A stretch of DNA of 56,754 nt from Acholeplasmatales bacterium (GCA_031284605.1 JAITXV010000114.1:1-56754); one strand, 5' to 3'; positions 23,068-51,696 are shown, counted from the stretch's first letter. Numbers and translations: made by a program. The notes: generated by a model not told the origin, from the letters alone.

Positions 23068-23068
23068 A

Positions 23069-26193: not shown

Positions 26194-26195
26194 TG

Positions 26196-26477
26196 TTATA
26201 TCCTCATTCCTAAAGTTTTATTTATCATATCTAATAACTCTTCCTTTGAATTATTATTATCTTTACTAATTGGTAATTTAATAATTATTGGGAAAGGGCT
26301 TGAATTAATAACGTCTAGATTATTTTGACTTATTATATAATCATTATCAATTATAATAATATCTTCGCCTGTATGTTCTTTTAGTATATCATTAAAGTTT
26401 TCGTTTGAGGCGTAAATAATATCTAGATTTAAACTTTTAAATATCCCCGCTTTTTTATATTTTGAAATAACTATCAT
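26196..26477 (-). CDS. V-type ATPase subunit F
   Basis: 93 aa. Called from size and from its position between C and A, matching E. hirae NtpG. Confidence 0.6.
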   Translation of the reverse strand: MIVISKYKKAGIFKSLNLDIIYASNENFNDILKEHTGEDIIIIDNDYIISQNNLDVINSSPFPIIIKLPISKDNNNSKEELLDMINKTLGMRI

Positions 26478-27229
26478 ATAATCTCACTTTCTAATGAAAA
26501 TTCCATTATTTTTTTTAACTCAATATTTTTTAATATTGTATATTTCACTAAGTAACTATAATTATCTTCTTCTATTGAAGATAAAAGTTTGTTATAACAT
26601 AAAGACTCAATTTTAGAAATGTCTTTATTTTTAACACTTAAAATATCCCTACAAAAGTCGCTAATAACATCATCATTTAATTCATAATTTATTAATTGTG
26701 TATTATATCTGTTATCTTTTGAACTAAAATATAGTTCAATGTTTTTAATTACCATATTATATTCATAAAACATTTTCATACTTCCTTTTAAAAGTGAAGA
26801 AAAATAATTATAAGCATAAGTAATAAAATTATTTATGTCTGAATCTTTAAGTAACTGTGCATTAAACCAAGGTTTGTTGTGGATACTTTCCCCTAAAACT
26901 AAATTTTTAACTTCTTCTTTACTTAAAGAAGACAACTTAGAAAAATTATCATCTTTTTTATATAATAAAAAATATACTATATTAGAAATATCATAAGACA
27001 AATATAAGTAATCAATAATAAAAGAATCAGAATCAAAAATTAAATAAAGTTCTGCTTTCTCATCATACAAAGTATTTTCAATAGTAGAACTTAAATCTTT
27101 TCCATTAGAGTAACTAATACTCCTAAGACCTGATAGTAAGTCTTTTTTGTAAATATGCAGTTGTTCATTAGTTATTAAATTGCTAATCCTAGTATTTAAT
27201 ATACTATTTACATATACGTAGTCAGTCAT
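26474..27229 (-). CDS. V-type ATPase subunit C (d-type), short form
   Basis: 251 aa. The N-terminus YVYVNSILNTRISNL resembles the subunit C/d start. It sits between E and F. Confidence 0.55.
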   Translation of the reverse strand: MTDYVYVNSILNTRISNLITNEQLHIYKKDLLSGLRSISYSNGKDLSSTIENTLYDEKAELYLIFDSDSFIIDYLYLSYDISNIVYFLLYKKDDNFSKLSSLSKEEVKNLVLGESIHNKPWFNAQLLKDSDINNFITYAYNYFSSLLKGSMKMFYEYNMVIKNIELYFSSKDNRYNTQLINYELNDDVISDFCRDILSVKNKDISKIESLCYNKLLSSIEEDNYSYLVKYTILKNIELKKIMEFSLESEII

Positions 27230-27841
27230 TTAATCTAATAATCTCATAATGTTTTTTTCTATAACTTCAGCTTTGTTTTGTATAAGTTCATTAAAATCAA
27301 AATTAAGATCATAGTCAGTTCCCTTTATAATAAAACCATCAAAAAAAGAATCTTTATCTTCACACAAAGTAAAAATAGTTGTAATATTATTAAAAGATAA
27401 TTTAAAATTTAATTTATCACAAATGTTTTTATTATTGCTAGATAACGCTTTTTTATATTTACTAAAGTTTTTAGAAGAAACATAAATATTATTAAAAGAA
27501 AATTCATTTTCTTTTAATAATAGCTTATAAACTAATTCTAATAAATCATCATTTTCCAAAGATGCTAAATACAAAATAGCATCATTTATTAATTCATTTA
27601 CTATTTGTTTTTTTACTTTAGCACTCTCTTTAGCGTAACTTTGATTAAGTAAACTAATTTTTTCCGCATGTTCTTTTAGTTTATTATCTTTTAATTTTTC
27701 GTACTTTTTTTCTAACTCACTAGACATATCATTAAACCTATTGTTAAAAAGAGTATCAATAGTTTGAATATAACTATTTTTGAAACTTTTAACTTTTTCT
27801 TCTATTAAATTATTTAAGTATTCTAAAATATCTTGTGCCAT
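27230..27841 (-). CDS. V-type ATPase subunit E (stator stalk)
   Basis: 203 aa with a long N-terminal charged coiled coil. It lies after subunit K. Confidence 0.6.
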   Translation of the reverse strand: MAQDILEYLNNLIEEKVKSFKNSYIQTIDTLFNNRFNDMSSELEKKYEKLKDNKLKEHAEKISLLNQSYAKESAKVKKQIVNELINDAILYLASLENDDLLELVYKLLLKENEFSFNNIYVSSKNFSKYKKALSSNNKNICDKLNFKLSFNNITTIFTLCEDKDSFFDGFIIKGTDYDLNFDFNELIQNKAEVIEKNIMRLLD

Positions 27842-27842
27842 A

Positions 27843-30233
<2,391 letters not shown>

Positions 30234-30241
<8 letters not shown>

Positions 30242-30620
30242 CTAATAAAACCTTTATAATAAGTTCTTTGGCTTTTTTATCAATATTTTTTTTATTATTA
30301 ATTAATTTTTCATTATCATTTAAAATTTGAGTATGAGTTATAATAAATTGACGAGCATACTCTTTATCTAGGTTTTCGCTAAAACTGTCATATTCATCTT
30401 CTAAAGCGACTTCAAAATGGATAAGTTGATCATTACATTTCTTTTCTTTATTTTTGTAATACATATCCTTATTGATAATTTCTTCATCTAAATCGCGAAT
30501 TAGTTGGTCTTCTTTTTCTAATACTTCTTTTAATTTATCTTGCATACATTTATTATATACCATTTTCATTTTTTTGCATTTAAAGTTGACATAACTTATA
30601 AGCGAAAACAAAAAAAACAA
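30234..30620 (-). CDS. Small coiled-coil protein at the head of the ntp operon, possible subunit G/H-like stalk protein
   Basis: Highly charged helical sequence that overlaps ntpI by 8 nt, in a position equivalent to E. hirae NtpF. The true start is probably an internal Met (MKMVYNK or MQDKLKE). Confidence 0.35.
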
Positions 30621-35723: not shown

Positions 35724-38700
35724 ATGAATAATAATAAAACAAAACAAATAGTAGACGGTTTAAGAAACAAACTAGTAGATACAGGATTAAAAAATCAATT
35801 AATTAATTTTAGATTTAGGAAAAGTTCTAATATAGAAATAATCCATCCTTATTTTGATGACTTATTATTTTCATTTAATAATCAAAAAGAATTAGTAATA
35901 GCTAATCTCTTTGATAATGATGAAGAAATTGACCCTTATGATTTTTTAATAGAAGATGAAAGATTCTCATTTTTAACAGAAGATACCACTAACAAACAAT
36001 TTTCTAAATCTGGAAGTGAAATATTAACTAAAAAAGATATATATACCTATAATGAATTAAGTAGTGCTATATTAAACTATACTAAAAAAGCAAGTTCAAA
36101 ATATAATTATGTATTTGTTTCAAGCCATACTAAAATTGCGAAAGCAGCGCTAAACAACATCTTAAAAAAATCTAAATTGTTTTTAGAAGAAAATGCAATT
36201 AATATTTTATATTTATCTTTAGGTAATTTAGTTTGGAAAACTTTGTCAGATCCTCTAAATACCATCTCATCTCCTTTACTACTACTAAGTGTTGAATTAA
36301 AACAAGAATCAATTGATTCCTTATATAAATTAGATTTTAGTAATAGTGAACTTTTATTAAATGATACTTTAATTAAAAAAATGAAAGATGAATATAATAT
36401 TGATTTATTTTATGAGTTTTATACTAAAGAAAGTTATATCAATATATATAAAGAATATTCAAAATTAGTATTAGAACTTACTTCTAATAAAAATTTTTAT
36501 ATAGAAGATAGAGTATTTTTTGGTCTTTTTTCATTTTCTAAAATAACTATGGTAAATGACTTATTAGAAAATGAAGAAAGTGTCTTAAACAATAAATTTG
36601 TACGCTTGTTAGGCGGGGATATCTCTATGTTTGTTTCTAATGGTAAACTTTATCAAGAAAAAGATATAGATTCTGTTTTTAAATATAAAGAGTTTTATCA
36701 TACCTTAACTAGTGACCCAAGCCAAGAAGCTGCTATTCAAAGTGCTATATCTGGTCATAGTTTTATCTTACAAGGACCACCAGGTACAGGTAAAAGTCAA
36801 ACTATTACTAATATTATTAGTGAACTTATATCAAGAGGAAAAAAAGTATTATTTGTAGCTGAGAAAAAAGCTGCTTTAGACGTAGTACTAAACAACTTAA
36901 AAAGATGCGGATTTGAAAGTTTAGTTTTATCTTTACATAGCACCGATATAGACAAAAAAGAAATTATTAAAGATTTAAACAATTGTTTAATATCAAGAGA
37001 TTCTTATAATGAAGTAGATAATTCATATTTAGATCAAAAAATTGAACAAATCAATAACTTATTAGAAAACTTAAAATCATATGAAAATATAATTACCTCT
37101 AAAATAGAACCATTAAAATTAACAGTATATGAAATGTTAGGAACTTATTATTCCTTAAATGAAATAACAGAAAAACAATTCGTTATAAATGATTTTTTAA
37201 AAATTAACAATTCAGATTTAACTAATTTATCAAATATAATTAATGAATTTGAAAATGCTACTAAAAAAATAGGAAATGATGTAAAAAATAACATTTGGTA
37301 TGGCTTAAAAATAAACAAATTATTTTTACGCGAACAAGATACTTTAGAAAATACCTTAAAAGAACAAATAACTAATATAAATGCTTTATTAAATATTATT
37401 AATAACTTTTTATTTACACCAAATGATACTATATGTATTAATGATATAGTTAATATTAGAAGTTTGTTTAATCATTTATCATTATACAAAGGAATAGATT
37501 CTACTATAATAAAAACTGCGTCTATAGATGAAGACATAGAAATGCTAAACCAAATAATAATATTGCGTGATACTATTTCAAGTAATACTGCTAATATTAA
37601 TAAATATTATGATGAAATAATAAGCGAAAAAATAGATATTGATTTAGCTTATAGAATTTACAAAAGAACAGATAATATATTAAAAAGAATTTTTAGTAAA
37701 GAATATAAAAATTTGAAGAAACAAATTTTACTATATTCTAAACAAAAAAGAAATTATAAAGAAACTTTATATGGTTTAGAACTTATTAATACTACTATAA
37801 AATTAAATAAAAACTATCAAACTTTATTTGATAGTTTAACTTCTAAAAACTACAATTTAAAAAACAATGATTTTGAAGCAATAGTATATAATCTAAATTG
37901 GTACAAAAAATATTTATTTTTTAAAAAAGACCTAAACGGTAAAATAAATATAACAAAAAATGAAGATAGTTTTAACAAGATGCTTGCAGATACTTTTAAG
38001 TGTAGTTCAATTTATAATAATTTAAATGCTATATTAGATAAAATGTATAGTTTAGATAATGTTTTATATTTCTATTTTGATAAAGACACAATTAAACTTC
38101 AAGAAATATATTTAGAAAATGTAGTATCTAAATATACAAAGATGATAAATAATATAGAGAGTATATATTTATATGTTAATTATAACAAAGCTTTAGACAA
38201 TCTAAAAATTAATAATTTAACCCCGTTTTATAATGCAATTATAGAATCAAAAATTACATCTAATTTTTTCTTATTTTTCCAAAAGCGCCTTTATCATTTA
38301 ATTCTTGATAATTATTTTAATACATATGGTTTTCAAGATATATTTTCTAAAGATAAATACTCAAACATAAGAAAAAATTTTAGTGCTCTTGATGATTTAT
38401 TTAAAGAAATAGCGAAAATAAATGTTTTAGCACTTGGTGCTAAAAGAACACCTAATTATAACGGATTAGATGGATTAAACTACGATATCCTAACTTTAAG
38501 AAAAGAAGCAGAAAAAGTACGAAAAATAAAACCTTTAAGGGTGTTATTTAAAGAAATATATGGCTTAATATTAGATTTAAAACCTTGTCTTATGATGAGT
38601 CCACTTTCAGTAAGTAATTATTTGAAAGATATAAAAGATTTTAGTTTATTTGATTGTGTAATATTTGATGAAGCTAGCCAAATAAGACCTGAAAATAGTT

Positions 38701-40457
38701 TAGGTACTATCGCAAGAGCTTCTCAAATAATTATTGTTGGTGATAAGGAACAATTACCACCAACTAACTTTTTTGAATCTATTGAAAATAACGAATCTGC
38801 TTATTACGATGAATTAGATGATTCTAGCTCGTATGACAGCATTTTAGAGTATTATGGTGGCTTATTAGATACAATCACTTTAAAGTGGCACTATCGTAGC
38901 AAATTTGATGATTTAATAAAGCCATCTAATGAAATGATCTATAAAAATCTAATAACCTTCCCATCTTCAAACACTCCTACTAAACTTGAGGGTATAGACT
39001 TTGAATATGTAAAAGGAATTTACAAAGATAGACAAAACCAAATTGAGGCTGCTAAAGTAGTAGAAATTGTAAAAAAGCATTTTGATTTATACAAAGGCAG
39101 TAGAAGTTTAGGTATTGTTACATTTAGTGAAATCCAATCTACGTTAATAGAAAAATACATTAATAATTTTAGAAGAAAAAATGTGGAATATGAAAAATAT
39201 TTTAAAAGTGATATAGATGAGTATTTCTTTATTAAAAATATTGAAACAGTTCAAGGGGACGAAAGAGATACTATAGTTATTAGTGTATGTTATGGTCCTG
39301 ATGAAAAAGGAAAAATATCACATAACTTTGGTCCTTTGAATAAAAAAGGTGGTTATAGAAGACTAAATGTTGCGATCACAAGGGCTAAATATAATCTTAT
39401 TTTAGTATCTTCTTTACTTTCTAATGATATTGATTTATCTAAAAGTGAAAGTAAAGGAGTAGAGTTCTTCAAAAAGTATTTAGAATATGCACAAAATAGT
39501 GATTTAGAAGATACTGTATTTAACTTTGAAATATCAAGAGAAGATTTGTTAGTTGATGATTTATGTGCAGAAATTGAAAATAGAGGCTATAACACTTCTA
39601 AAAATATAGGAACTTCTTCTTTTAAAGTAGACGTAGCAGTTATAAATCTAAAAGAAAGAAACAAATATTTGTTAGGAATATTATTTGATTATAATTTATA
39701 TAATAAATCTTCTACGGTTTTAGATAAAGAAAAATTAAAAATAGAAATGCTAAAAAGTAGAGGATGGAACTTATATTCATTAAATATAAGTGATTACTAC
39801 TATAATAAATCTAAAGTGATAGATGAAATTATTAATCAAATTAATAATTCTCAAAAAGAAGTAACTTTAAATAAAAAAGATATTGTTCCAGTAAACAACG
39901 TTCAAAAGAAAAGCGACAGTTTAGAAATACCAGTTTATCCATCTTATAAAACTTTACTAGATAGTTATACTTTCTTAGGCAATGAATCTAAAACTATAAC
40001 TAAAATAATAGAAATATTAAGCCCTGTCCACATAAGTGAATTAAAAAAGATACTCCCACAAATATACGCAAGAGAAAAATATTCATCTTTTGTAGAAAAT
40101 AGTTTTGAGATAGTAAAACAGGAATTGCTTGATAAAAATATTATATATGTTGATTATAACGATTTTTATATTTTTACAAATTCTAAAATTATTTTTAGAC
40201 AAACTACTCTTTCTAGCAATAAACGTACGTTTGAACACATTCACGATAGAGAAATTTTAGATTGTATAGTAAAACTACTAAGTGTTACTAAAAAAATGAA
40301 GTTAGAAAACTTATATAAAATACTTCTAAATTATACTTTATACCAAGTATCTACTGAAAATATAATAAATAAGATAAATGATATTATAAGATTATATTTA
40401 AATGAATATGTTATTATAGAAAATGATACCATAATATTAAAAGAAAGGAACAAATAA
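35724..40457 (+). CDS. Giant SF1 (Upf1/DNA2-like, AAA_11/AAA_12) helicase with DUF4011-like N-terminus, REase-like module and DUF3320-like C-terminus
   Basis: 1577 aa. N-terminus LRNKLVDTGLKNQLINFRF (DUF4011-like). Motif I is GPPGTGKSQT. A ~550-aa helical insertion follows. Motif II is VIFDEASQ, motif III VGDKEQLPPT, then WHYRSKF, TVQGDERD and RRLNVAITRAK. A block at residues ~1260-1350 (GTSSFKVDVAV...LKSRGWNLYSL) resembles the Vsr/DUF559-type nuclease fold. Confidence 0.85.
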   Translation: MNNNKTKQIVDGLRNKLVDTGLKNQLINFRFRKSSNIEIIHPYFDDLLFSFNNQKELVIANLFDNDEEIDPYDFLIEDERFSFLTEDTTNKQFSKSGSEILTKKDIYTYNELSSAILNYTKKASSKYNYVFVSSHTKIAKAALNNILKKSKLFLEENAINILYLSLGNLVWKTLSDPLNTISSPLLLLSVELKQESIDSLYKLDFSNSELLLNDTLIKKMKDEYNIDLFYEFYTKESYINIYKEYSKLVLELTSNKNFYIEDRVFFGLFSFSKITMVNDLLENEESVLNNKFVRLLGGDISMFVSNGKLYQEKDIDSVFKYKEFYHTLTSDPSQEAAIQSAISGHSFILQGPPGTGKSQTITNIISELISRGKKVLFVAEKKAALDVVLNNLKRCGFESLVLSLHSTDIDKKEIIKDLNNCLISRDSYNEVDNSYLDQKIEQINNLLENLKSYENIITSKIEPLKLTVYEMLGTYYSLNEITEKQFVINDFLKINNSDLTNLSNIINEFENATKKIGNDVKNNIWYGLKINKLFLREQDTLENTLKEQITNINALLNIINNFLFTPNDTICINDIVNIRSLFNHLSLYKGIDSTIIKTASIDEDIEMLNQIIILRDTISSNTANINKYYDEIISEKIDIDLAYRIYKRTDNILKRIFSKEYKNLKKQILLYSKQKRNYKETLYGLELINTTIKLNKNYQTLFDSLTSKNYNLKNNDFEAIVYNLNWYKKYLFFKKDLNGKINITKNEDSFNKMLADTFKCSSIYNNLNAILDKMYSLDNVLYFYFDKDTIKLQEIYLENVVSKYTKMINNIESIYLYVNYNKALDNLKINNLTPFYNAIIESKITSNFFLFFQKRLYHLILDNYFNTYGFQDIFSKDKYSNIRKNFSALDDLFKEIAKINVLALGAKRTPNYNGLDGLNYDILTLRKEAEKVRKIKPLRVLFKEIYGLILDLKPCLMMSPLSVSNYLKDIKDFSLFDCVIFDEASQIRPENSLGTIARASQIIIVGDKEQLPPTNFFESIENNESAYYDELDDSSSYDSILEYYGGLLDTITLKWHYRSKFDDLIKPSNEMIYKNLITFPSSNTPTKLEGIDFEYVKGIYKDRQNQIEAAKVVEIVKKHFDLYKGSRSLGIVTFSEIQSTLIEKYINNFRRKNVEYEKYFKSDIDEYFFIKNIETVQGDERDTIVISVCYGPDEKGKISHNFGPLNKKGGYRRLNVAITRAKYNLILVSSLLSNDIDLSKSESKGVEFFKKYLEYAQNSDLEDTVFNFEISREDLLVDDLCAEIENRGYNTSKNIGTSSFKVDVAVINLKERNKYLLGILFDYNLYNKSSTVLDKEKLKIEMLKSRGWNLYSLNISDYYYNKSKVIDEIINQINNSQKEVTLNKKDIVPVNNVQKKSDSLEIPVYPSYKTLLDSYTFLGNESKTITKIIEILSPVHISELKKILPQIYAREKYSSFVENSFEIVKQELLDKNIIYVDYNDFYIFTNSKIIFRQTTLSSNKRTFEHIHDREILDCIVKLLSVTKKMKLENLYKILLNYTLYQVSTENIINKINDIIRLYLNEYVIIENDTIILKERNK

Positions 40458-40459
40458 AA

Positions 40460-41185
40460 ATGAAGAAATTACTTGATGTTTATAAGAATAGTCTAAAATT
40501 AATTTACCAAGATAATAAAGAAGAAATTCTAGAAAAAGAAGAAAGTTGTTTTGAAATTGAATACACTTACAATTCTTGTAGTTTAAAAGGTTTAAACAAA
40601 GTATCTTTAGGCGATGTAAAAACTTGCTTGTTAGCCAACGATATATTAAATTATTCAGAAAGAGAAAAAAAAGAAATTCTAAATCATCATAAAGCATATC
40701 TCTATATCAAGAACTTAGTTAAAAACAACGTTCAATTAACAGAAGAGGTATTAAAAGATATCCACGAAATACTAGTAGAAGGAATATATAACGGAGGAAT
40801 ATATAGAAATGTAAATATTTCTATATTAGGAGCATCTCATCAACCAACTGATTATTCTAAAGTATATGATAGAATGTATAAAATGTTTCTTCTTGTAAAT
40901 GAATGTAATAACAACCCTATAGAAAAAGCTGTATATGCTCATGCTCTTCTTTCTAAAATTCATCCTTTTGTAGATGCTAATGGAAGGCTTTCAAGATTAG
41001 TAATGAATTATTATTTATTACAAGCTGGATACAAAGGTATTTACATACCTTTGTCTGATAAAAATAAATATTTTGCTTTATTAGAAATATTTAAAGTTGA
41101 AAAAGATATTAACCCATTATTAGATTATATAGAAAATATATTAGAAGATAGATATTCATCACTTTTAAAAGAATTAGAGAAATAA
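40460..41185 (+). CDS. Fic-domain protein (AMPylase family), class-II layout with altered inhibitory motif
   Basis: Fic motif HPFVDANGRLSR (40961..40996) matches HxFx(D/E)(A/G)N(G/K)R. The N-terminal helix has SCSLKG (40574..40591) where (S/T)xxxE(G/N) is expected. It starts 2 nt after the helicase stop. Confidence 0.85.
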   Translation: MKKLLDVYKNSLKLIYQDNKEEILEKEESCFEIEYTYNSCSLKGLNKVSLGDVKTCLLANDILNYSEREKKEILNHHKAYLYIKNLVKNNVQLTEEVLKDIHEILVEGIYNGGIYRNVNISILGASHQPTDYSKVYDRMYKMFLLVNECNNNPIEKAVYAHALLSKIHPFVDANGRLSRLVMNYYLLQAGYKGIYIPLSDKNKYFALLEIFKVEKDINPLLDYIENILEDRYSSLLKELEK

Positions 41186-42124: not shown

Positions 42125-43558
42125 ATGGCACAAGAAAACAATAAACAAGTAAAACAAATAACATCTATGGATACTGACTTTGCTCAGTGGTACAGCGATG
42201 TTTGTATGAAAGCAGAACTGATGGATTATTCTAGTGTTAAAGGATTCATTATTTATAGACCTTATGGATACGCTATTTGGGAAAATATTCAAAACTATCT
42301 AAATACCCAATTTAAAAAGACTGGTCATGATAATGTGTATATGCCTCTAGTGATTCCTGAGTCTTTATTTAATAAAGAAAAAGAACACGTTGAAGGATTC
42401 GCACCAGAAACAGCCTGCGTTACTTATGGAGGAAGCGAAGAGTTAGCCGAAAAACTTATTATAAGACCTACAAGTGAAGTATTATTTTGTGAACATTATA
42501 AAAATATAGTTTCTTCATACCGTGATTTACCTAAAAAATATAATCAATGGTGTAGTGTGGTAAGATGGGAAAAAACAACAAGACCTTTTTTAAGAGGTAA
42601 GGAATTTTTGTGGCAAGAGGGTCATACTATTCACGAAACTGCTAAAGAAGCTAAAGAAGAAACTGCTAATATGTTAAAAATATATAAAAATATGGGTAAA
42701 AAGCTTTTAGCTATTCCTTTTGTTACAGGAGAAAAAACTGCTAAAGAAAAGTTTGCGGGTGCTGAAAATACTTATGCTATTGAAGCATTAATGCACGATG
42801 GAAAAGCTCTTCAAAGTGGAACAAGCCATTATTTTGGACAAAACTTTTCTAAAGCTTTTGGAATTGAATTTTTAAATAATGAAAATAAAAAAGAATTTGT
42901 ATATCAAACTAGTTGGGGAGTTTCAACTAGACTTATTGGTGCTATTATTATGGTACACGGTGATGATAATGGATTGGTTTTACCTCCTTACGTTGCTCCT
43001 AAACAAATAGTTATTATTCCAATCCAAAGTCAAAAAGAAGAAGTTCAAAATGCTTGTAAAACTTTAAGTTATAAATTAATTAGAAAAGGTTATAGGGTTT
43101 ATGTTGATAATACTAACAGGACACCTGGATATAAGTTTTCAGAATGTGAAATGAGAGGCATTCCGTTAAGAATAGAAATAGGACCTAGAGATTTAGAAAA
43201 TAATGAAGTAACTTTAGTTACTAGGTATAATGGGGTTAAAACTAAATATAACATAGATGCTGTACCTGCTTTAATTGAAGGTTTATTAAAAGAAATCAAT
43301 GATAATATGTATAATAAAGCTTTAGCTCATGTTACTGCTAATACTAGAGTAGCTACTACTGAAGAAGAATTTAGTACTTATATTAACATGGGTGGTTATG
43401 TGAAACTTTGTATAAGTGGAAATGAAGCTGAAAATATAATTAAAGAAAAATATCAAGCTACTGCTAGAGTTATTTTAAGAGAAAAACCTTATATTAGTAT
43501 TTGTCCTATAACTAATCAAAAAGTTACACAAGTGGTGTTATTCGCAAGAGCTTATTAG
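42125..43558 (+). CDS. proS: Proline--tRNA ligase (archaeal/eukaryote-like class IIa form, no INS editing domain)
   Basis: 477 aa. FAQWYSDVCMKAELMDY, IRPTSE, VVRWE and GTSHYFGQNFSKAFGI. It starts 2 nt after cvfB. Confidence 0.92.
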   Translation: MAQENNKQVKQITSMDTDFAQWYSDVCMKAELMDYSSVKGFIIYRPYGYAIWENIQNYLNTQFKKTGHDNVYMPLVIPESLFNKEKEHVEGFAPETACVTYGGSEELAEKLIIRPTSEVLFCEHYKNIVSSYRDLPKKYNQWCSVVRWEKTTRPFLRGKEFLWQEGHTIHETAKEAKEETANMLKIYKNMGKKLLAIPFVTGEKTAKEKFAGAENTYAIEALMHDGKALQSGTSHYFGQNFSKAFGIEFLNNENKKEFVYQTSWGVSTRLIGAIIMVHGDDNGLVLPPYVAPKQIVIIPIQSQKEEVQNACKTLSYKLIRKGYRVYVDNTNRTPGYKFSECEMRGIPLRIEIGPRDLENNEVTLVTRYNGVKTKYNIDAVPALIEGLLKEINDNMYNKALAHVTANTRVATTEEEFSTYINMGGYVKLCISGNEAENIIKEKYQATARVILREKPYISICPITNQKVTQVVLFARAY

Positions 43559-43597
43559 TTCTTGATAATATAAAAATAAAAAAAGGAGATTTAAAAA

Positions 43598-44080
43598 ATG
43601 GCTAAAAAAAGAAAAAGTGGTATTAATTTATTAGGTTTAGTAAGTGCATGTGTTGGTGTAGTAAGTGTTTTATTATACGGACTTCTTAAAGTTGGAGGAT
43701 CTCAAGCTAAATTACTTGGAAACTGGAAAGATAGTGACAAATTTGTAAGTGGATTTCAATTCGCATTTGGAAATAAAGAGACACTAAATGTTACAGGATA
43801 CTCTAGCGATCCCCATTGGATAGGAATTGTAGCTATAGTATTAGTAGCTTTAGGTATCGCTGCCATATTGATTTATGCATTAGCTAAAGTTAAAGGTGCA
43901 GCTTACGTAGCAGCTTTAGTTTTTGTTTTAGCAGGTGTAGCTATGCTTCTTAGTGTTGCTTTAAGTGGAGAAGAAAACAATTCAATATTCAGACATGTCT
44001 TAGGTGTAGGTGCTATTGTTGGTGGTATCTTAAGTATTGGTGCCGGAGCACTTAGTTGCTTTGTAGTTGTAAAAAAATAA
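43598..44080 (+). CDS. Small Gly/Ala-rich membrane protein, unknown function
   Basis: 160 aa with 4 hydrophobic segments. SD AAGGAG lies upstream. Confidence 0.45.
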   Translation: MAKKRKSGINLLGLVSACVGVVSVLLYGLLKVGGSQAKLLGNWKDSDKFVSGFQFAFGNKETLNVTGYSSDPHWIGIVAIVLVALGIAAILIYALAKVKGAAYVAALVFVLAGVAMLLSVALSGEENNSIFRHVLGVGAIVGGILSIGAGALSCFVVVKK

Positions 44081-44100
44081 CTAAATTTAGTAATAAAAAA

Positions 44101-44128
44101 AACTCTTGAATAATTCAAGAGTTTTTCT
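44101..44128. terminator. Bidirectional terminator
   Basis: Stem AACTCTTGAA / TTCAAGAGTT with loop TAA, flanked by A7 and T5. Confidence 0.8.
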
Positions 44129-44129
44129 T

Positions 44130-44615
44130 TTACTCATTTTCCTTAAAATTGTCAGTTGTGATAAAGAATCCAATTATTAAGATTGCCATAGCATATATTA
44201 ATGACACTATTACATTCATATTTTTAATAAATATCATACTAGAGTTACTAAAACGCTTTTTTACAATTCCTATTACATCTTCATTAGATACTTTAAATTT
44301 TTCATTTCGCTCATCTTCATCTATTATTATGATTATATGGTCTGTATTAACTTCTTTTATTTGTTCCATAATAACTAGATTATCCGTAGCTTCTGATATA
44401 AAAAGTATATAATCATCAACTTTATAGTTTTTTGAATTTTCAATTACCACAACACACTCAGTTTTGGAATCAGGAGATACACTTTCATTTACAATATACA
44501 TCTTATTTTTTAAATTTTCTGTACTAAAAAATATTACTAATGGTCCTAGAACTATTATTAAAACAAATATTATCATTTTAATAATATAGCTTTTTACTTT
44601 ACTATTTTTACTCAT
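44130..44615 (-). CDS. SipW-like (S26B) signal-peptidase paralogue, predicted catalytically inactive
   Basis: It has the same architecture as the adjacent sipW (N-terminal TM, beta core, C-terminal TM) and aligns with it. ESVSP matches GSMDP, DDYILFIS matches GDIIAYIS, and EDVIGIVKK matches DNVIGKCV. The HRV box is IMEQ and GDN is DED. Confidence 0.5.
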   Translation of the reverse strand: MSKNSKVKSYIIKMIIFVLIIVLGPLVIFFSTENLKNKMYIVNESVSPDSKTECVVVIENSKNYKVDDYILFISEATDNLVIMEQIKEVNTDHIIIIIDEDERNEKFKVSNEDVIGIVKKRFSNSSMIFIKNMNVIVSLIYAMAILIIGFFITTDNFKENE

Positions 44616-44626
44616 AATGAACCATC

Positions 44627-45901
44627 TTATAAACTAATATATTTAGGTACATCTTCACAAACAGACACATAGCCTAAACCTAGTTGACCATCTTCATTAT
44701 TTCCAAACACAACTATTCTATCTTTAGATGTTGATATCATTGTGTATAGTACACCTAAACTAATTTGAACTGGTACTTCTTTATTTAAATAATTGATACC
44801 ATTTAGTTTTGTAAGTACAATGTGAGGGTCATAACTAACTCCATCACCTGTTTGTCCGTACGAACGGTCTCCTGCCATATATATATTGTATTTATTAGTT
44901 AAAACTGCCATATTGTAAACTATAATATCAACTTCAATTATTTTTTCATTTGGCCCTAGAGATGGTAAAGTAGCGAATGTGAGAGTAGTTACTGGTGAGT
45001 AAGTATTAACTCCTAATTGATAACCATCATTTGAGCCACAAACTACTAACCTTCCAGATATAGTTAAATATGCTGTTGAATTTACGTCTGATTTAACAGA
45101 TACTATTTTTTCATTGTTAACAAATTCATTTAACTTTGTGTGTTTTGTTAAAGTACTATAAGAAGTACTAGGACTAGCACCAGGAACTCCAATGGCATAA
45201 TCAGTATTATATCCAACAAAGTATACATTTCCACCTACAGTTAGGAAAAATGTTTGATCTTCTCCTAAAACAATATTAACTATCTTATCAGTACCAACTG
45301 CAGATGTATTTACTTTAGCTGGTTTTGTATATACCGCGAATCTATCTGGCTGAGCTGCTTTATAGTGAATATTTGAACCACAAGAAAATACATTGCCTAA
45401 GTTAGTTAAAAAGAAACTTCTAGAATCAATTCTACAATTAACATATATTACTTTTTCATTTGGTTTTAAACCATTTATATTAATTAGTGTTGGTGTTGTT
45501 ACCACATTTGAATGGTTTAAACCTAATACATAATCTTCATTTTTTCCAAATCCGTATACATTACCATTTTCAGTTAGTACTAATGCGTTTTCTAAACCTG
45601 TTGAAACATATACTACGTTTGATAAACTATTTATTTTGCTTGGTGATAAAATATCATTTGTTGTTCCATTACCTAGTTGACCGCTATAATTAACTCCCCA
45701 AGAATATAAATCATGGTTTTTGGAAATAGCTAACGTATTTCTATAGTTAGTTTTAACTGCGGTGTAAGAATAATTAGTTTGTAATAATGTTTTTGTATCA
45801 ATCCATGTACTACTTCTAAAATACGAAAAAGCACTAGGAATGATAAAGAAAAACGCTAATGCCATACAGCAGGAGATAATTAAATATTTTATAATTTTCA
45901 T
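44627..45901 (-). CDS. Secreted 7-bladed RCC1-repeat beta-propeller protein with SipW-type signal-like N-terminus
   Basis: Seven repeats are visible: YSWGVNYSGQLGNG, VYGFGKNEDYVLG, VFSCGSNIHYKA, VYFVGYNTDYAIG, LVVCGSNDGYQLG, IYMAGDRSYGQTGDG and VVFGNNEDGQLGLG. The preferred start is ATG 45901 (MKIIKY), with SD GGAGG 5 nt upstream and an ATGA overlap with the sipW stop. The track start at 45913 is less likely. Confidence 0.8.
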   Translation of the reverse strand: MKIIKYLIISCCMALAFFFIIPSAFSYFRSSTWIDTKTLLQTNYSYTAVKTNYRNTLAISKNHDLYSWGVNYSGQLGNGTTNDILSPSKINSLSNVVYVSTGLENALVLTENGNVYGFGKNEDYVLGLNHSNVVTTPTLININGLKPNEKVIYVNCRIDSRSFFLTNLGNVFSCGSNIHYKAAQPDRFAVYTKPAKVNTSAVGTDKIVNIVLGEDQTFFLTVGGNVYFVGYNTDYAIGVPGASPSTSYSTLTKHTKLNEFVNNEKIVSVKSDVNSTAYLTISGRLVVCGSNDGYQLGVNTYSPVTTLTFATLPSLGPNEKIIEVDIIVYNMAVLTNKYNIYMAGDRSYGQTGDGVSYDPHIVLTKLNGINYLNKEVPVQISLGVLYTMISTSKDRIVVFGNNEDGQLGLGYVSVCEDVPKYISL

Positions 45902-46404
45902 GTCTTCCTCCATTCTTTTTTTATTAGATTTAAAATTAGCACAGTGCTAGTTACTATTATTCCTATAATTGCTATAAAAATAATCAACCCTTGCAGAGTA
46001 CTAACTCTACTAATAAACGTGCTAATTTTATTATTTATATTAACACATTTTCCTATTACATTGTCTTTCTTAACTTTTTCTGTGTTGCCTTTGCTTACAT
46101 TATCACCTTGTGTTATATAACTATCATCCTCTATCTTGGTAACTCTATGTACAACCACTTTATTGCTAAGTTCTTCACTTATATAAGCAATTATGTCACC
46201 TTCATTTATTGAAACTGAAGATGCTTTTTTGATTGTAACAATAGAGTTAATTTTGATAGATGGATCCATAGAACCACTTTTTATTGTGTAATATCTATAA
46301 CCAAATAAAAATACTTTTTGATTATTTTTATACACAAATGCAAATGGAACTATTAATAATAAGATTACTAAGGCAACCGCCCAAAGTATCCTTTTTTTAA
46401 TCAA
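45898..46404 (-). CDS. sipW: Signal peptidase I, SipW/archaeal (S26B) type
   Basis: 168 aa. Catalytic Ser box SGSMDP, His box VVHRV and GDN box QGDNV, with N- and C-terminal TM helices. Confidence 0.85.
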   Translation of the reverse strand: MIKKRILWAVALVILLLIVPFAFVYKNNQKVFLFGYRYYTIKSGSMDPSIKINSIVTIKKASSVSINEGDIIAYISEELSNKVVVHRVTKIEDDSYITQGDNVSKGNTEKVKKDNVIGKCVNINNKISTFISRVSTLQGLIIFIAIIGIIVTSTVLILNLIKKEWRKT

Positions 46405-46416
46405 TTACTTTACTAC

Positions 46417-47085
46417 CTAAAATGTTGGAATACTTTGATCGTTATTACGATATTGAATTGCATAAGCAGCGGCTGTTACGTTAAAAGTTAAACCTTGGCA
46501 TTCATTGCCAGCTGTAGGTGATAGATAAATTGTAAATTGAATAGAATATACATTAGAACCAGCAAATACATAATTATCATCAAAAGATTCAGCGCTGTCG
46601 CTTTCTGTTTCTGCTGCAGTACCAGTACCATCAATAATTACTGCACCACTTGATATTTTACCACTATCTAAAGTAAGTTTTTTACTGTTATCAGCTGAGC
46701 TGATAAATTGTGCTATTTCTGCACTAGTATATTCACCTTCCCAGAAAGTTAATCCTGCTAGTAAATTTGCAGGGATTGTACCAAAATCTAATTCAGCTTT
46801 TAACCAAGCACTCTTTGATCCGTTGTTAGTTATAGCTGCAGTAACTACTATAGCATCACCAGGATTTATATTGTCTAGACTTGATTTTACAACTCCGTTT
46901 TGTTTCATTGTTTCAGTTCCACTAATATTAAGGGTACCTGCTGTAACAGCTATGCTGTTTCCAGTATAGGCATCTGTGAAAAATGAATACGCTGCGCCTA
47001 CTGCGCCACCAACTAATAATAACAGTAATAATAATAGTAAGGCTATCTTTTTACTGCCTTTAAATTCTTTTTTTTGTTCATTCAT
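46417..47085 (-). CDS. TasA/CalY/camelysin-family (M73-like) secreted fibre protein with SipW-cognate signal peptide
   Basis: A basic N-terminus is followed by an L-rich h-region and AAYSFFTDAY (compare the AyFsD motif of SipW substrates). Then come AGTLNISG, NINPGD and ITNNGS blocks, ending in AAAYAIQYRNN. Confidence 0.8.
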   Translation of the reverse strand: MNEQKKEFKGSKKIALLLLLLLLLVGGAVGAAYSFFTDAYTGNSIAVTAGTLNISGTETMKQNGVVKSSLDNINPGDAIVVTAAITNNGSKSAWLKAELDFGTIPANLLAGLTFWEGEYTSAEIAQFISSADNSKKLTLDSGKISSGAVIIDGTGTAAETESDSAESFDDNYVFAGSNVYSIQFTIYLSPTAGNECQGLTFNVTAAAYAIQYRNNDQSIPTF

Positions 47086-47123
47086 AATTTTTACCTCTTT
47101 CGCTTACCATTGTAAGCATATCT

Positions 47124-47152
47124 ACTATAACATAAAAAAAAACAAATGTAAA
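47124..47152 (-). promoter_or_regulatory. Putative promoter of the tasA-like operon with a T9 tract in the spacer
   Basis: On the minus strand, TTTACA (47152..47147) is followed by a 17-nt spacer and TATAGT (47129..47124). The spacer contains T9 (plus-strand A9, 47134..47142). Confidence 0.4.
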
Positions 47153-47336
47153 GTGTTAGAAATTACTTTGTTTAAATACGCTTGTAGTCGCAACTTTTTA
47201 TTAATTCTAGCGGTTTGATTTTTAACTATAATATCATTGTTGCGGTTGAAAACGTCAAAATAATGCAAATAGTAAGTTTTATTTATACTAATATGATACA
47301 ATATAAGTATAAATAATAATAAAAGGAGGTACTAAT

Positions 47337-48710
47337 ATGGATATATTACGATATATAATTAAGTACAATCATTGGTGGAACGCTGGTGAAATTAACAAAA
47401 ATATGACACAAGATATTAAAAGGAGTGAGTTCGAACAAATAATGGATTTGTTAGATTCTAAACGTATAACTATGTTAGTTGGACCAAGAAGATGTGGTAT
47501 GACTACCTTATTATACCAAAGTATCGATGAGTTATTAAAAAGAGGAGTTAAACCAAGTAATATTATATTTTTTGATGGAGATGATGCTTTAATATTTGAT
47601 TCGCATATTACAATAGGAGATATATTTAGTATATATGAAAGAGATATTTTAGGAAACAATGTAGAAGATATAAATGAAAAAGTATATATAGTTGTTGATA
47701 ATATAAGTTTTTTGAAAGATTGGTCTTTATATTTAAAAAATTATTTGAAAGAATATCCAAATATTAAATTTATTATGTCAAGCAGCATAGCCTCAAATAT
47801 TTTTAAAATAGCCAAAGAAGAATTAATTAGTAAAATGGATATTATTAATATTTTCCCACTTAAAACTAATCAGTTTGTGGATTCACATTTATTTTTTAAC
47901 GCAGATAGTATGAACTTTACATCTTTATTACCAAAAGTATCATTATTTGAAGACCCAAAACAATATTTTGAAAGTTTAAGAGAAAAGATGCCAAATTTAT
48001 TATTTTATGAAAATAAGATTAATAACATAGTTAATAAATATTTGTTAGCAGGAGGATATCCTGAGTTTAGAGAAACTTCTAAAATAGATTTGTGGCAAAA
48101 AAGAACTAATCAAGATATCATATCTCATGGATTCTTTAGAGATATTATGTCACTATATTCTATTAAAAATCCATATAAATTAGTAGAACTGTTTTATTAT
48201 TTAGCTAAAAATGATGGAAATACTTTTTCATATAATTCAATAGGTCAAGAACTTAAATTAGATAATGAGACTGTATTAGAATATATTACTTTTCTTAGGA
48301 AGGCTGGATATTTGATAATTGAAACTGTATATTCAAAACATTCATATTTTGAATATAAATCACCAAAAAGAATATTATTTTTAGATAATGGTATAAGAAA
48401 TTCTATAGTAAGAGAAACAAGTATGAATATTGATTTGAAAAAGAAATGCGCAAGAACTTCTCTTAACTTTCTAGCTTTTATGAGTTGTTTAGATAATAAT
48501 TGGAACTTGTTTTACGAATCTAAAAATAACCATAACATAGTAATTGATAAAATTAATTCTAATTTAGTAATTAAACCTAAATTTACTAATAATGTTACTC
48601 CAGATGATTTTAGTAAAATTGATGATAATACTATAAACATTGTAGTTACATCAAGTTTATTAGATTATAAGGATAATACCTACTATATTCCTTTTTGGTT
48701 AGTTAATTAA
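47337..48710 (+). CDS. AAA_14/DUF4143-family ATPase-like protein with degenerate Walker motifs
   Basis: 457 aa. The family-typical layout VGPRRCGMTTL...VYIVVDNISFLKDW...GGYPEF is present. Walker A is GPRRCGMT (Lys to Met, ATG 47499..47501) and Walker B is DN instead of DE. A strong SD AAGGAGG lies upstream. Confidence 0.7.
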   Translation: MDILRYIIKYNHWWNAGEINKNMTQDIKRSEFEQIMDLLDSKRITMLVGPRRCGMTTLLYQSIDELLKRGVKPSNIIFFDGDDALIFDSHITIGDIFSIYERDILGNNVEDINEKVYIVVDNISFLKDWSLYLKNYLKEYPNIKFIMSSSIASNIFKIAKEELISKMDIINIFPLKTNQFVDSHLFFNADSMNFTSLLPKVSLFEDPKQYFESLREKMPNLLFYENKINNIVNKYLLAGGYPEFRETSKIDLWQKRTNQDIISHGFFRDIMSLYSIKNPYKLVELFYYLAKNDGNTFSYNSIGQELKLDNETVLEYITFLRKAGYLIIETVYSKHSYFEYKSPKRILFLDNGIRNSIVRETSMNIDLKKKCARTSLNFLAFMSCLDNNWNLFYESKNNHNIVIDKINSNLVIKPKFTNNVTPDDFSKIDDNTINIVVTSSLLDYKDNTYYIPFWLVN

Positions 48711-48843: not shown

Positions 48844-51696
48844 CTATTCTGTTCTAAGTGCAACTGCTGGGTCTTTCTTAGCAGCACTTTGGGCAGGAAT
48901 GAACCCTGATATCATAGATAAAGCTATAGATAAAGCTAACATCAATACTGCATAAAACCAAGGGAATATAGCCATATTACCAACACTAGAGTTAACATGA
49001 CTAATTATTACATTTATAACAAAAGTACCAATATATGTAACAATAATAGCTAATATACCTGAAGCTAAACCAATAATAAATGTTTCTGCATTGAATAAAT
49101 TAGATACATCTCTTTTTCTTCCACCTAAAGATCTAATAGTTCCAATTTCTTTTATTCTTTCTAAGACAGATACAAATGTAATAATTGCTATCATAACACA
49201 AGATACTATTAAAGCTAAAGATGTAAATGCAATTAAAGCGGTTGTTACTATATCTATTAAAGTATTAACCATTCCAATAATTAAACCAATATTATCTTGG
49301 TATTTAATAATACCTGTAGCATTTTGCGAAGACACTCTGTCTTCGTAAGTCCATAACTTATTACTTTTAGTTCCGTCAGGATTAGTACTTAAAAATGTTA
49401 ATGAACCTTCGTTGTTCCATTTATCTAATGATTCAAGAACTTTATCTTTTAAATCAAAGTTAACAGGATAAATAGCTATTGCATTAGGTACTTTTATTCC
49501 TCCACTTTGACGAAGTGTAAAGGTTTTTAAACTAGCACTATCTCCTAACAAACTACCAATAGCACCACCAGTAAAACTATCAAGCATTGATAACATTGTA
49601 TTATATTGACCAACATATCCAGTAATTAGAGCATGATTATATTCAGTACCGATACTAGCTCCCGATGCATCACGAAGTGATACATTGATTTCATATTGAT
49701 AATTAATACCTATTTCTGTAGATAATGAAGTTCCTGGAATATTAATTCTTCCTGAACTAATATTAGTAGCGGGATTCCCTTCTCCATCAACGCTATTTCT
49801 TAAAAATGATGTTAATTCTGAATTAAGATTGTCTTCTAAAAACTTTCTAGTAAAAGCTTCTGTATAATAAAATCCATTTGATAGTGAGCCATAATTAATA
49901 TCATCTTTTGGTTTTAAAATTCCAACTATTTTCATATCAAAACCATTTTCAAATGTTCCAGTATCATTTACATTAAGTTTAAAGCTAGTTGCATCTAAAG
50001 CAGATGGCACGTTAGCTGTATAAATAGAGTTATTAGGATAATATGTAAACACTTTATTTCTTATAAAATCATAACTAATTCTTCTTGAGTAATCGTACAA
50101 ATCTTGATTGTACGCAGCATGTGGAGCACCACTTTCTGTTTTCAAAGTACTATAAATAATATTTTCTACTTCGTTTTGTGAATAAAAACCTAATTGAGCT
50201 AACACCACATCATTTATTTCTTGGCTTTTAGTTAATACTAACATAAGTTCATTTGATTTAGTAGCTACAACGCCATCAAGCAATTCATATTGTTGTAATA
50301 TGTAATTTTCATTAGCAGGAGCTTGTTGGAAGCCATTAGTTTCTGATATCATTAAATTAGAATACTGAGCATAATCTGTTTGGTTCATAACGTGCTGATA
50401 AAGGTCTGCTACTGCAGATAATGCTAATTTTCTAGCGTTATCGCTTGTTAAATCATAAGTTCCATCAACATTAATTTTTTCATGGAAATCTGTAAAAATA
50501 TTGTTAGATACATCAATACCAAAATCTTGATAAACTGCTGCTACATAGTCACTTGGTAAACTCATAATATAATCTACATATTCTTGAGTAATATTATTAT
50601 TAATAGCGCTTCCTGCATAATTTTGAGCCATATATGCTAATCTCTCAATAGTTGAGTTAACATTAACTTTACCGTCTTCGATAACTAATGTTTTTCTTTG
50701 TTCGCTAGGACCCATATTGCCTAGTAAACTTGAGATATCAGAACCTTGTTCATTTATTTGAACTGGATTTCCACTTAACATATCATCTTGCATATTAGTA
50801 ATATAACTTCTAACTCCGTACGATACAGCTAAAACTAATGATACACCGATAATTCCAATACTTGATGCTATAGCCGTTAATATAGTACGACGTTTTTTAG
50901 ATAATAGATTTTTTAAACTTAAAAAGAAAGCAGTGCTAAATGACATTTTAGCTTTTTCTTTTTTAACTTTCTCAGCATCAAAACCATTATCTCTAACTTC
51001 TTTTTCTTCAGCATCTAAAGGATATGGATTAGAATCTTTAAGAATTAAGCCATCTAGCATATCAACTATTCTTGTTGAATATTCTTCTGCTAATTCTCTA
51101 TTGTGAGTAACCATTATTACTAATCTTTCTTTAGCTATTTCTTTAATTATATTCATAATTTGGTTAGAATTTTCAGTATCTAGTGCTCCTGTAGGCTCAT
51201 CTGCTAAAAGTATTTCAGGATCATTAACTAAACTTCTTGCTATAGCAACCCTTTGACATTGACCTCCTGATAACTCAGTAGGTTTTTTAGAGTATTGGTC
51301 ACTAAGTCCTACTTTATCAAGAGCTTCTTTAGCTTTTTTAACTCTAACTTCTTTTTTTAATCCAGATATCGAAAGTGCTAATTCTACATTAGATAATACA
51401 GTTTGATGAGGAATCAAATTGTAACTTTGAAAAATGAAACCAATTCTATGGTTTCTATATACATCCCAATCTCTATCTTTAAATTCTTTAGTAGAAATAC
51501 CACCTATATATAAATCACCAGTAGTATACTTGTCTAAACCACCTATAATATTTAAAAGAGTGGTTTTTCCACATCCTGAAGGACCTAGTATAGATACTAG
51601 TTCATTTTTTCTAAAAGCTAAACTGACACCTTTTAGAGCTTCAACTTTGTAATCTGCAATTTTATAATCTTTTGTAATCTTTTTTAACCTAAGCAT
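48844..51696 (-). CDS. Fused ABC transporter: MacB/LolD-type ATPase plus FtsX-type permease with a very large extracytoplasmic domain
   Basis: 950 aa. Walker A GPSGCGKTT, signature LSGGQCQRVAIARS and Walker B LLADEPTGALD. One TM helix is followed by a ~500-aa extracytoplasmic region and 3 C-terminal TM helices (FtsX). Confidence 0.85.
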   Translation of the reverse strand: MLRLKKITKDYKIADYKVEALKGVSLAFRKNELVSILGPSGCGKTTLLNIIGGLDKYTTGDLYIGGISTKEFKDRDWDVYRNHRIGFIFQSYNLIPHQTVLSNVELALSISGLKKEVRVKKAKEALDKVGLSDQYSKKPTELSGGQCQRVAIARSLVNDPEILLADEPTGALDTENSNQIMNIIKEIAKERLVIMVTHNRELAEEYSTRIVDMLDGLILKDSNPYPLDAEEKEVRDNGFDAEKVKKEKAKMSFSTAFFLSLKNLLSKKRRTILTAIASSIGIIGVSLVLAVSYGVRSYITNMQDDMLSGNPVQINEQGSDISSLLGNMGPSEQRKTLVIEDGKVNVNSTIERLAYMAQNYAGSAINNNITQEYVDYIMSLPSDYVAAVYQDFGIDVSNNIFTDFHEKINVDGTYDLTSDNARKLALSAVADLYQHVMNQTDYAQYSNLMISETNGFQQAPANENYILQQYELLDGVVATKSNELMLVLTKSQEINDVVLAQLGFYSQNEVENIIYSTLKTESGAPHAAYNQDLYDYSRRISYDFIRNKVFTYYPNNSIYTANVPSALDATSFKLNVNDTGTFENGFDMKIVGILKPKDDINYGSLSNGFYYTEAFTRKFLEDNLNSELTSFLRNSVDGEGNPATNISSGRINIPGTSLSTEIGINYQYEINVSLRDASGASIGTEYNHALITGYVGQYNTMLSMLDSFTGGAIGSLLGDSASLKTFTLRQSGGIKVPNAIAIYPVNFDLKDKVLESLDKWNNEGSLTFLSTNPDGTKSNKLWTYEDRVSSQNATGIIKYQDNIGLIIGMVNTLIDIVTTALIAFTSLALIVSCVMIAIITFVSVLERIKEIGTIRSLGGRKRDVSNLFNAETFIIGLASGILAIIVTYIGTFVINVIISHVNSSVGNMAIFPWFYAVLMLALSIALSMISGFIPAQSAAKKDPAVALRTE

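Follow-up and report, generated by a model that had tools for sequence, protein, structure and literature searches.

On a 56,754-nucleotide (nt) stretch of an Acholeplasmatales bacterium assembly (GCA_031284605.1, JAITXV010000114.1:1-56754; the window hereafter), four closely packed minus-strand open reading frames (ORFs), together spanning 44130-47085, raise the question of what a TasA-like protein, a SipW-type signal peptidase, an RCC1 propeller protein and a second, degenerate SipW might produce in concert. Our answer, held with moderate confidence, is that they probably constitute one operon building a surface fibre of the TasA superfamily, with a SipW-cut subunit, an RCC1 accessory protein and a non-catalytic SipW paralogue (sipW2). 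A first-pass annotation of the window had placed four such genes between a promoter and a terminator, and all of the ORFs were found as claimed, with intergenic spacers of 12 nt (tasA-like/sipW), -4 nt (sipW/RCC1) and 11 nt (RCC1/sipW2; coordinates in Table 1). The promoter candidate agrees with the consensus at 10 of 12 positions, carries the TG and was the top-scoring candidate within 43500-47400. At the other end, the terminator-like hairpin begins 3 nt past the sipW2 stop, has a T-run after it on the minus strand and separates the operon from a convergent gene at 43598-44080. The RCC1 start codon is the ATG at 45901, which has GGAGGA 5 nt before it and overlaps the TGA stop of sipW as ATGA. 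The G+C content at the operon (26-28%) was the same as that of the remainder of the window. The possibility that a riboswitch or leader RNA precedes tasA was rejected, the leader being only ~40 nt long and matching nothing in Rfam.

The tasA-like product had been assigned to the TasA/camelysin family, and this assignment is supported by family-profile and structure comparisons. It scored 22.0 bits against Pfam Peptidase_M73 (PF12389; gathering score 22.5), over its N-terminal 60 residues only, and just 10 homologues were found among 5.8 billion proteins, at 30-40% identity, 8 of which carry PF12389. When a profile of this family was compared with solved structures, the best matches were to Bacillus subtilis TasA (8aur and 5of1; E ~0.01, colinear over ~170 positions). 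For the AlphaFold2 (AF2) model (predicted local distance difference test score, pLDDT, 81.3), Foldseek ranked the TasA fibre 8aur_A first (E 2.7e-5, probability 1.0), as the sole match with E <1e-3, at a template modelling (TM) score of only 0.40; the third match was the archaeal bundling pilin 7ueg (AbpA). On the strength of profile and predicted structure we place the protein in the TasA superfamily, within a separate subfamily recognisable by its KSAW and QYRNN motifs.

The predicted signal, AAYS/FFTD (the slash marking the expected cut, here and below), agrees with the family consensus xAFFSD, and the predicted mature N-terminus, whose P2' and P4' residues are Phe and Asp, is a candidate donor strand. 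Motifs shared across the family are AFFSD, TAGTL, NINPGD, GxKSAW, AGNExQG and AxQYRNN. Among 43 TasA-like members, positions conserved in at least 90% were F36, D38, PGD75-77, K91-S-A-W, N194, Q197 and R-N-N213-215, with F36 and D38 kept in 42 of the 43, Lys91 of the GxKSAW motif likewise in 42, and position 161 acidic in every one (33 E, 10 D). As a side observation, the conserved Asp38 (in the candidate donor strand), Lys91 and acidic 161 are reminiscent of the Asn-Glu-Lys intermolecular isopeptide lock of BsaA or of the way in which Ca2+ mediates strand complementation in AbpX; where the window subfamily has Lys91, B. subtilis TasA lacks an aligned Lys.

The second gene had been described as an intact S26B peptidase of the SipW type, and so it appears: its product scored 72.6 bits against TIGR02228 (cutoff 51.85), and the SGSMDP, HRV and GDN boxes are all present, with Ser45, His86 and Asp101 in place and, by eye, a hydrophobic segment at each end. 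The Ser/His/Asp triad was kept in 24 of 24 other SipWs from related loci, and the profile of this SipW family matched human SEC11C and SEC11A (E 1e-12). The score against the Bacillus SipW equivalog model NF046067 fell below its cutoff (64.1 bits vs 190). From its motifs and model matches, sipW is an intact signal peptidase of the endoplasmic reticulum (ER)/archaeal type (SipW type) and, by NF046067, not a Bacillus orthologue. According to PMC10269814, an aromatic residue at P2', as in the TasA site, hampers cleavage by LepB-type enzymes yet is accepted by SipW. B. subtilis SipW cannot act as a peptidase without its His87 (Tjalsma 2000, cited by PMC8767453), and that protein has a second function independent of its peptidase activity (PMC8767453).

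By a test set beforehand, the claim that RCC1 belongs in such a system would fail without its recurrence beside sipW and tasA elsewhere. In all, 47 related loci were collected, all of them around TasA-like homologues (3 by protein look-up, 9 from species genomes scanned with a 4-sequence TasA-like alignment, and 35 from metagenomes). The 9 species-genome loci came from a Clostridiales metagenome-assembled genome, Nomurabacteria, Saccharimonadales, Pseudolactococcus and Lactococcus, and Oscillospiraceae. A common cassette emerged, in which a TasA-like subunit is joined by an LPXTG-anchored partner, a SipW and a large accessory protein; in many cases a sortase is fused to the SipW or comes after it. 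The partner, of 170-265 amino acids (aa), is encoded by the gene after tasA, has an ordinary AxA signal and matched nothing in Pfam. Most full-length partners end in a [LV]P[ND]TGE sorting signal, a transmembrane segment and a basic tail, as sortase substrates do. It also has a TasA-like NxYQGK motif, and is probably a wall-anchored, acceptor-only basal subunit; against the TasA-like profile, only this C-terminal motif of the partner aligned (probability 6%). In several loci SipW and sortase are fused in a single protein of 365-405 aa, so that one enzyme combines the cutting of signals with anchoring to the wall.

The gene after sipW (or sipW-sortase) in the 47 loci typically encodes a large protein with a SipW-type xAFFSD signal, and the C-terminal domains that these accessory proteins carry vary between loci (Table 1). 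In 7 of the 47 loci (425 kb examined) an RCC1 ORF shares the strand of tasA at a distance of 3 bp to 6.1 kb, and an eighth lay 8.6 kb from tasA; judged by their signal sequences, the RCC1-bearing loci represent about four lineages, from uncultured bacteria not related to one another. As RCC1 genes are rare in bacteria, linkage in 7 of 47 loci looks well above chance. The closest TasA relative (38% identity, locus L018) has the same tasA-sipW-RCC1 order as the window; its RCC1 accessory is a 555-aa protein composed of a signal, an Ig-like domain and RCC1 repeats, and no partner or sortase was found in its cluster. Locus L026 is a clean four-gene cassette whose last gene encodes an RCC1 protein of 1375 aa; the signal of this protein is VGFAFFSD...ATSGCLQV. 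Because the 47 loci share the cassette and 7 of them have RCC1, the accessory slot that holds RCC1 is, on gene order and signal sequences, real and recurrent. The expected recurrent linkage was thus observed, and the first-pass placement of RCC1 in an accessory slot stood; what fell was the equation of that slot with TapA's, and no TapA homologue is present. The window differs from these cassettes in its economy: its RCC1 protein is minimal (a signal, ~20 disordered residues and a propeller), and a phmmer search (E <0.1) of its ORFs of 100 aa or more found no partner or sortase homologue.

The RCC1 protein matched Pfam WD40_RLD (PF25390) at 187 bits and RCC1 (PF00415) at 109 bits, and contains seven hhxxG repeats. 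Its AF2 model (pLDDT 87.9) retrieved the seven-bladed UVR8 and RCC1 as top Foldseek matches (TM 0.89) and superposed on UVR8 with a TM-score of 0.89 and a root-mean-square deviation of 2.2 Å. In the model, residues 2-32 form one long helix, residues 28-46 have pLDDT <50 and the propeller begins near residue 48. The seven blades, the ATGA junction with sipW and a motif resembling A-x-S-Y-F (here SAFSYFRS) had all been reported at first pass and were recovered. The predicted signal, PSAFS/YFRS, keeps Ala and Ser at -3 and -1 and a Phe at P2', and Pro occupies -5. As the NCBIfam SipW-cognate signal model matched neither the tasA-like nor the RCC1 protein (E up to 1), signals were scored with a position matrix that we built from 40 family signals, with 673 background ORFs for comparison. 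On this matrix the RCC1 signal, at 2.7 bits, ranked second in the window after that of the tasA-like protein (8.5 bits), compared with 7-26 bits for most other accessory proteins of the cassette, and hhalign placed the RCC1 N-terminus in register with the family signal at a probability of 43%. A lipoprotein reading of IISC at residues 8-11 was rejected, because it would leave a signal of only 10 residues and the hydrophobicity runs on for another 10 past the Cys pair (residues 13-22).

Among the best 120 RCC1 homologues, a comparable N-terminus was found only in a protein of Alteracholeplasma palmae J233 (FO681347.1; P0031, in locus L014), which combines RCC1 with Flg_new and has the signal TASYS/YWAQ. 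When TASYS/YWAQQIDTSQLAQNTN of this protein was aligned with SAFS/YFRSSTWIDTKTLLQTN of the window, 65 of 5000 shuffles attained the observed score. A 175-aa secreted protein with the signal GGAYA/YWAS is encoded 11 nt ahead of P0031, with a LytTR response regulator and a histidine kinase upstream; no SipW was found within the 17 kb examined. This pair, at 7462-9476 of locus L014, may be a second, divergent module of a small subunit plus RCC1. When the 175-aa protein was compared with the TasA-like profile, only its signal region aligned (probability 13%).

The fourth gene had been taken for a SipW-like paralogue without the His box, and alignment confirmed that the triad His is replaced while Ser and Asp are kept. 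Its product scored only 17.7 bits against TIGR02228 (E 0.0025), though colinear over the full length, and matched a 15-sequence SipW profile in hhalign at a probability of 89.7% (E 1.8e-6). It retains the nucleophile Ser (in SVSP, replacing SMDP), the Asp and, by eye, the terminal hydrophobic segments; depending on the alignment, Met-Glu or Glu-Gln stands in place of His86-Arg87, the FGYKPY motif is absent, and identity to sipW is ~26%. On this alignment sipW2 is a pseudo-enzyme, a SipW homologue with an incomplete triad. A sipW2-like gene was found in no other cassette of the 47 related loci.

How these four products could make a fibre is suggested by homology with characterised systems. B. 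subtilis TasA fibres form by donor-strand exchange (PMC9674648, PMC10151520), TapA primes their assembly through strand complementation (PMC10151520), and growth from the base has been proposed for BsaA (PMC11580942). By homology, the TasA-like pre-protein would be exported by Sec and then cut by SipW at AYS/FFTD. The freed N-terminal strand, with its aromatic P2' and acidic P4' residues, would enter the jelly-roll of a neighbouring subunit by donor-strand complementation, giving a filament as for B. subtilis TasA and Clostridium perfringens BsaA. The RCC1 protein, translationally coupled to sipW, is probably cut at AFS/YF, synteny and anatomy both suggesting it as a SipW substrate, and its ~20-residue extension would then be a donor strand on a protein with no acceptor groove. 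Such a protein would prime or cap one end of the fibre, with the propeller displayed as a terminal binding module. As growth from the base leaves the groove of the oldest subunit empty, a strand-only RCC1 protein could fill that groove, prime assembly and end at the distal tip. The paralogue sipW2 is most likely non-cleaving, and may act as an assembly chaperone or hold a strand, uncleaved or N-terminal, fast at the membrane; more speculatively, it would stand in for the missing sortase and LPXTG partner. A stronger form of this proposal, in which dead sipW2 is a membrane receptor whose substrate cleft clamps the signal/donor strand of the most proximal subunit uncut and so keeps the fibre on the membrane, while RCC1 primes the fibre and becomes its tip adhesin, we consider quite improbable. 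If true, a pseudo-peptidase would provide a novel kind of anchor for a donor-strand-exchange fibre, without a sortase and an LPXTG anchor.

Several observations weigh against a fibre operon with a SipW-processed RCC1 tip. The fibre, the cleavage and the interactions are predictions from genes and modelled structures. The RCC1 signal is a weak match to the family (~25th of the 673 background ORFs), with the conserved P4' Asp absent, and where other RCC1 accessories have a TasA-like or Ig-like domain at the N-terminus, this protein has none. AFS/Y also fits the generic AxS pattern of an ordinary Sec cleavage site, so that any signal peptidase I might cut it. Furthermore, the window propeller is closer to unlinked database proteins (3e-41) than to the RCC1 proteins of other loci (phmmer 1e-17 to 1e-20); as it is not specifically kin to the latter, the linkage may reflect repeated recruitment of the domain. 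Most of these points would suit an RCC1 protein with a binding role independent of the fibre, secreted or anchored in the membrane, that merely shares the transcript, with SipW a general rather than a dedicated signal peptidase, and secreted RCC1 proteins are common in bacteria outside a TasA context. Against such independence are the ATGA coupling of RCC1 to sipW, the dozens of loci in which this slot holds proteins with SipW-type signals (RCC1 in 7), and the rarity of this type of N-terminus among RCC1 proteins (2 of 120); we regard it as unlikely, though far from negligible. Equally, the single long helix that AF2 predicts for residues 2-32 could be an uncleaved membrane anchor, which would put RCC1 at the fibre base, as a nucleator or anchor resembling TapA, and not at the tip. 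With no LPXTG partner or sortase among the window ORFs of at least 100 aa, a membrane anchor of some sort would be needed, and anchoring of BsaA oligomers in the membrane has been reported (PMC11580942). However, a good cleavage site is formed by Pro, Ala and Ser at -5, -3 and -1, and the accessories of relatives bear canonical cleavable SipW-type signals, which leaves the uncleaved anchor a low probability.

For sipW2 the competing explanation is that it is a functionless, decaying duplicate of sipW. It had no relative among 1.84 billion representative proteins, a result that weighs against our proposal in its turn, since a function for sipW2 then has no comparative support and decay is possible. 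Its restriction to the window among the cassettes, and the loss of both the His-Arg pair and FGYKPY, fit decay as well. Yet the chance persistence of a 161-codon frame at 26% G+C was estimated at ~5e-7, and the protein retains both hydrophobic ends, Ser-x-x-Pro and Asp, together with the pattern of the hydrophobic core (hhalign 90%), despite ~26% identity to sipW. The gene also lies within the operon, 11 nt past RCC1 and ahead of the terminator, and we give decay a minor share of the probability. Far less credible is the reading of the 222-aa protein as a camelysin-type metalloprotease or spore-coat protein in place of a fibre subunit. What speaks for that reading is the name of the Pfam family, Peptidase_M73, which is regarded as a likely misidentification (PMC11580942); no metal-binding motif was noticed at the positions conserved in the 43 TasA-like members, and the best structural match of the protein is the TasA fibre, so that we consider this reading very improbable.

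The operon had been likened to B. subtilis tapA-sipW-tasA, with which it shares a subunit of TasA fold, a SipW-type signal with an aromatic P2' and an acidic P4' residue, a dedicated ER-type Ser-His-Asp peptidase within the operon and an accessory protein that may supply the priming strand. In contrast to the B. subtilis operon, the gene order is different, SipW is not the Bacillus equivalog, the accessory is RCC1, an extra dead peptidase is present, and the subunit belongs to a distinct subfamily with marginal sequence likeness to B. subtilis TasA (E ~0.01). No NCBIfam or Pfam model of TapA (YqxM) matched any of the four proteins. The likeness to TapA is loose, and the analogy gives way to better comparators in C. 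perfringens bsa and the TasA-superfamily modules. The four-gene sipW-bsaA-bsaB-bsaC operon of C. perfringens (PMC11580942) likewise has a SipW, a polymerising TasA-like subunit and a large secreted accessory with a protein-interaction domain, and its fibres are proposed to be membrane-anchored, not sortase-anchored. The accessory there is a vWA protein where the window has RCC1, and there are two TasA-like paralogues where the window has one. The N35-E56-K74 isopeptide triad of BsaA is not evident in the window subfamily, which conserves D38, K91 and the acidic 161 instead, and a dead peptidase such as sipW2 is not reported for bsa.

The TasA-superfamily modules AbpX, Tafi and AbpA (bioRxiv 10.64898/2026.01.04.697558) have, in the accessible text of that preprint, the same general architecture as our 47 loci, in which the major subunit is accompanied by a dedicated signal peptidase I, by a tip or minor subunit whose fold varies, and by an LPXTG/SLH anchor plus sortase. 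Within that text no RCC1 tip is named, the peptidase accessory is DUF5305 where the window has a dead peptidase paralogue, and AbpX-linked peptidases have ten transmembrane helices, compared with the two hydrophobic segments of the window sipW. A tip/anchor type of general architecture is also reported for BsaA/TasA neighbourhoods (PMC11580942), and with the bsa operon and these modules described, the general architecture is already known. For sipW2 the nearest parallel is SipA/LepA of Streptococcus pyogenes (PMC4049620), a signal-peptidase homologue in a fibre operon whose catalytic residues are lost. This dead signal peptidase is essential for pilus assembly, being needed for polymerisation presumably through binding of subunits at the membrane. 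SipA, however, is of the P type (S26A, Ser-Lys), has lost both catalytic residues and serves sortase pili, whereas sipW2 is of the ER type (S26B), has lost only the His and lies in a TasA-type operon. With a match to S26B, its Ser kept and no sortase homologue in the window, sipW2 is related to the SipA/LepA type by analogy, not membership. Among the open-access papers and preprints searched, none was found that combines 'RCC1' and 'SipW', in keeping with the earlier statement that RCC1 in a TasA system is not known to be described. As far as can be told, no earlier description exists of RCC1 as a class of accessory, or of an S26B paralogue that is dead, in an operon of this sort.

TasA-type fibres serve widely as scaffolds of biofilms and surface structures, and work continues on how such fibres are initiated, how they are capped and how they are attached to the cell. 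The current picture of these fibres is not overturned by the window operon. What is gained is the definition of a compact, widely transferred cassette, present in Clostridia, Lactococcus relatives, Oscillospiraceae and candidate phyla radiation bacteria, with a modular terminal accessory. RCC1 is a recurrent choice of that module, which provides bacterial RCC1 proteins, mostly of unknown role, with a concrete function that can be put to the test, that of binding modules carried by the fibre. The window offers a minimal version (strand plus propeller) with a pseudo-peptidase added, and could show how fibres are retained without a sortase.

Table 1. Coordinates of the operon features in the window, and of SipW-sortase fusions and accessory domains in related loci (L numbers).
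Feature	Position	Strand	Description
Putative sigma-70-type promoter	47124..47152	-	TTTACA-17-TATAGT, extended -10 TG; consensus match only
tasA-like gene	46417-47085	-	222 aa, TasA-like predicted major fibre subunit
tasA-like signal	46984-47085	-	residues 1-34, predicted cleavage AYS/FFTD
sipW	45898-46404	-	TTG start, 168 aa, SipW-type S26B signal peptidase I
RCC1 gene	44627-45901	-	424 aa, predicted secreted seven-bladed RCC1-like beta-propeller
RCC1 signal	45824-45901	-	residues 1-26, predicted cleavage AFS/YF
RCC1 disordered extension	45761-45823	-	residues 27-47, ~20 residues
RCC1 propeller	residues 48-424	-	RCC1 repeats, AF2 model
sipW2	44130-44615	-	161 aa, degenerate SipW paralogue
Intrinsic-terminator-like hairpin	44098..44126	.	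bidirectional, 13-bp stem, A and T runs on flanks
SipW-sortase fusion	L007 7638-8777		Nomurabacteria
SipW-sortase fusion	L013 11590-12687		Saccharimonadales
SipW-sortase fusion	L016 1819-2928		
SipW-sortase fusion	L026 11600-12817		
SipW-sortase fusion	L031 7430-8620		
SipW-sortase fusion	L032 11461-12651		
Accessory domain Laminin_G_3	L002, L004, L046		
Accessory domain Flg_new	L010		
Accessory domain TIG	L013		
Accessory domain DUF285	L028		
Accessory domain ALK_LTK_GRD	L044		
Accessory domain RCC1	L018, L024, L025, L026, L029, L032, L039		

Elsewhere in the window, an AAA_14/DUF4143 ATPase is encoded at 47337-48710 (+), divergent from the promoter of the fibre operon, and a link to the fibre genes is not evident. 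Beyond it, 48844-51696 (-) encodes a 950-aa fusion of an ABC ATPase to an FtsX-type permease (MacB-like), with a large extracytoplasmic domain. On the other side of the operon, a 1577-aa protein at 35724-41185 (+) combines DUF4011 with superfamily-1 helicase domains (AAA_11, AAA_12) and a REase_MTES_1575 nuclease; a Fic/DOC protein is encoded 2 nt past it, and the pair resembles a defence or toxin module. At 22693-30620 (-), genes that by eye resemble a V-type (Ntp) ATPase operon, with subunits A, B, D, K and I, were also seen.

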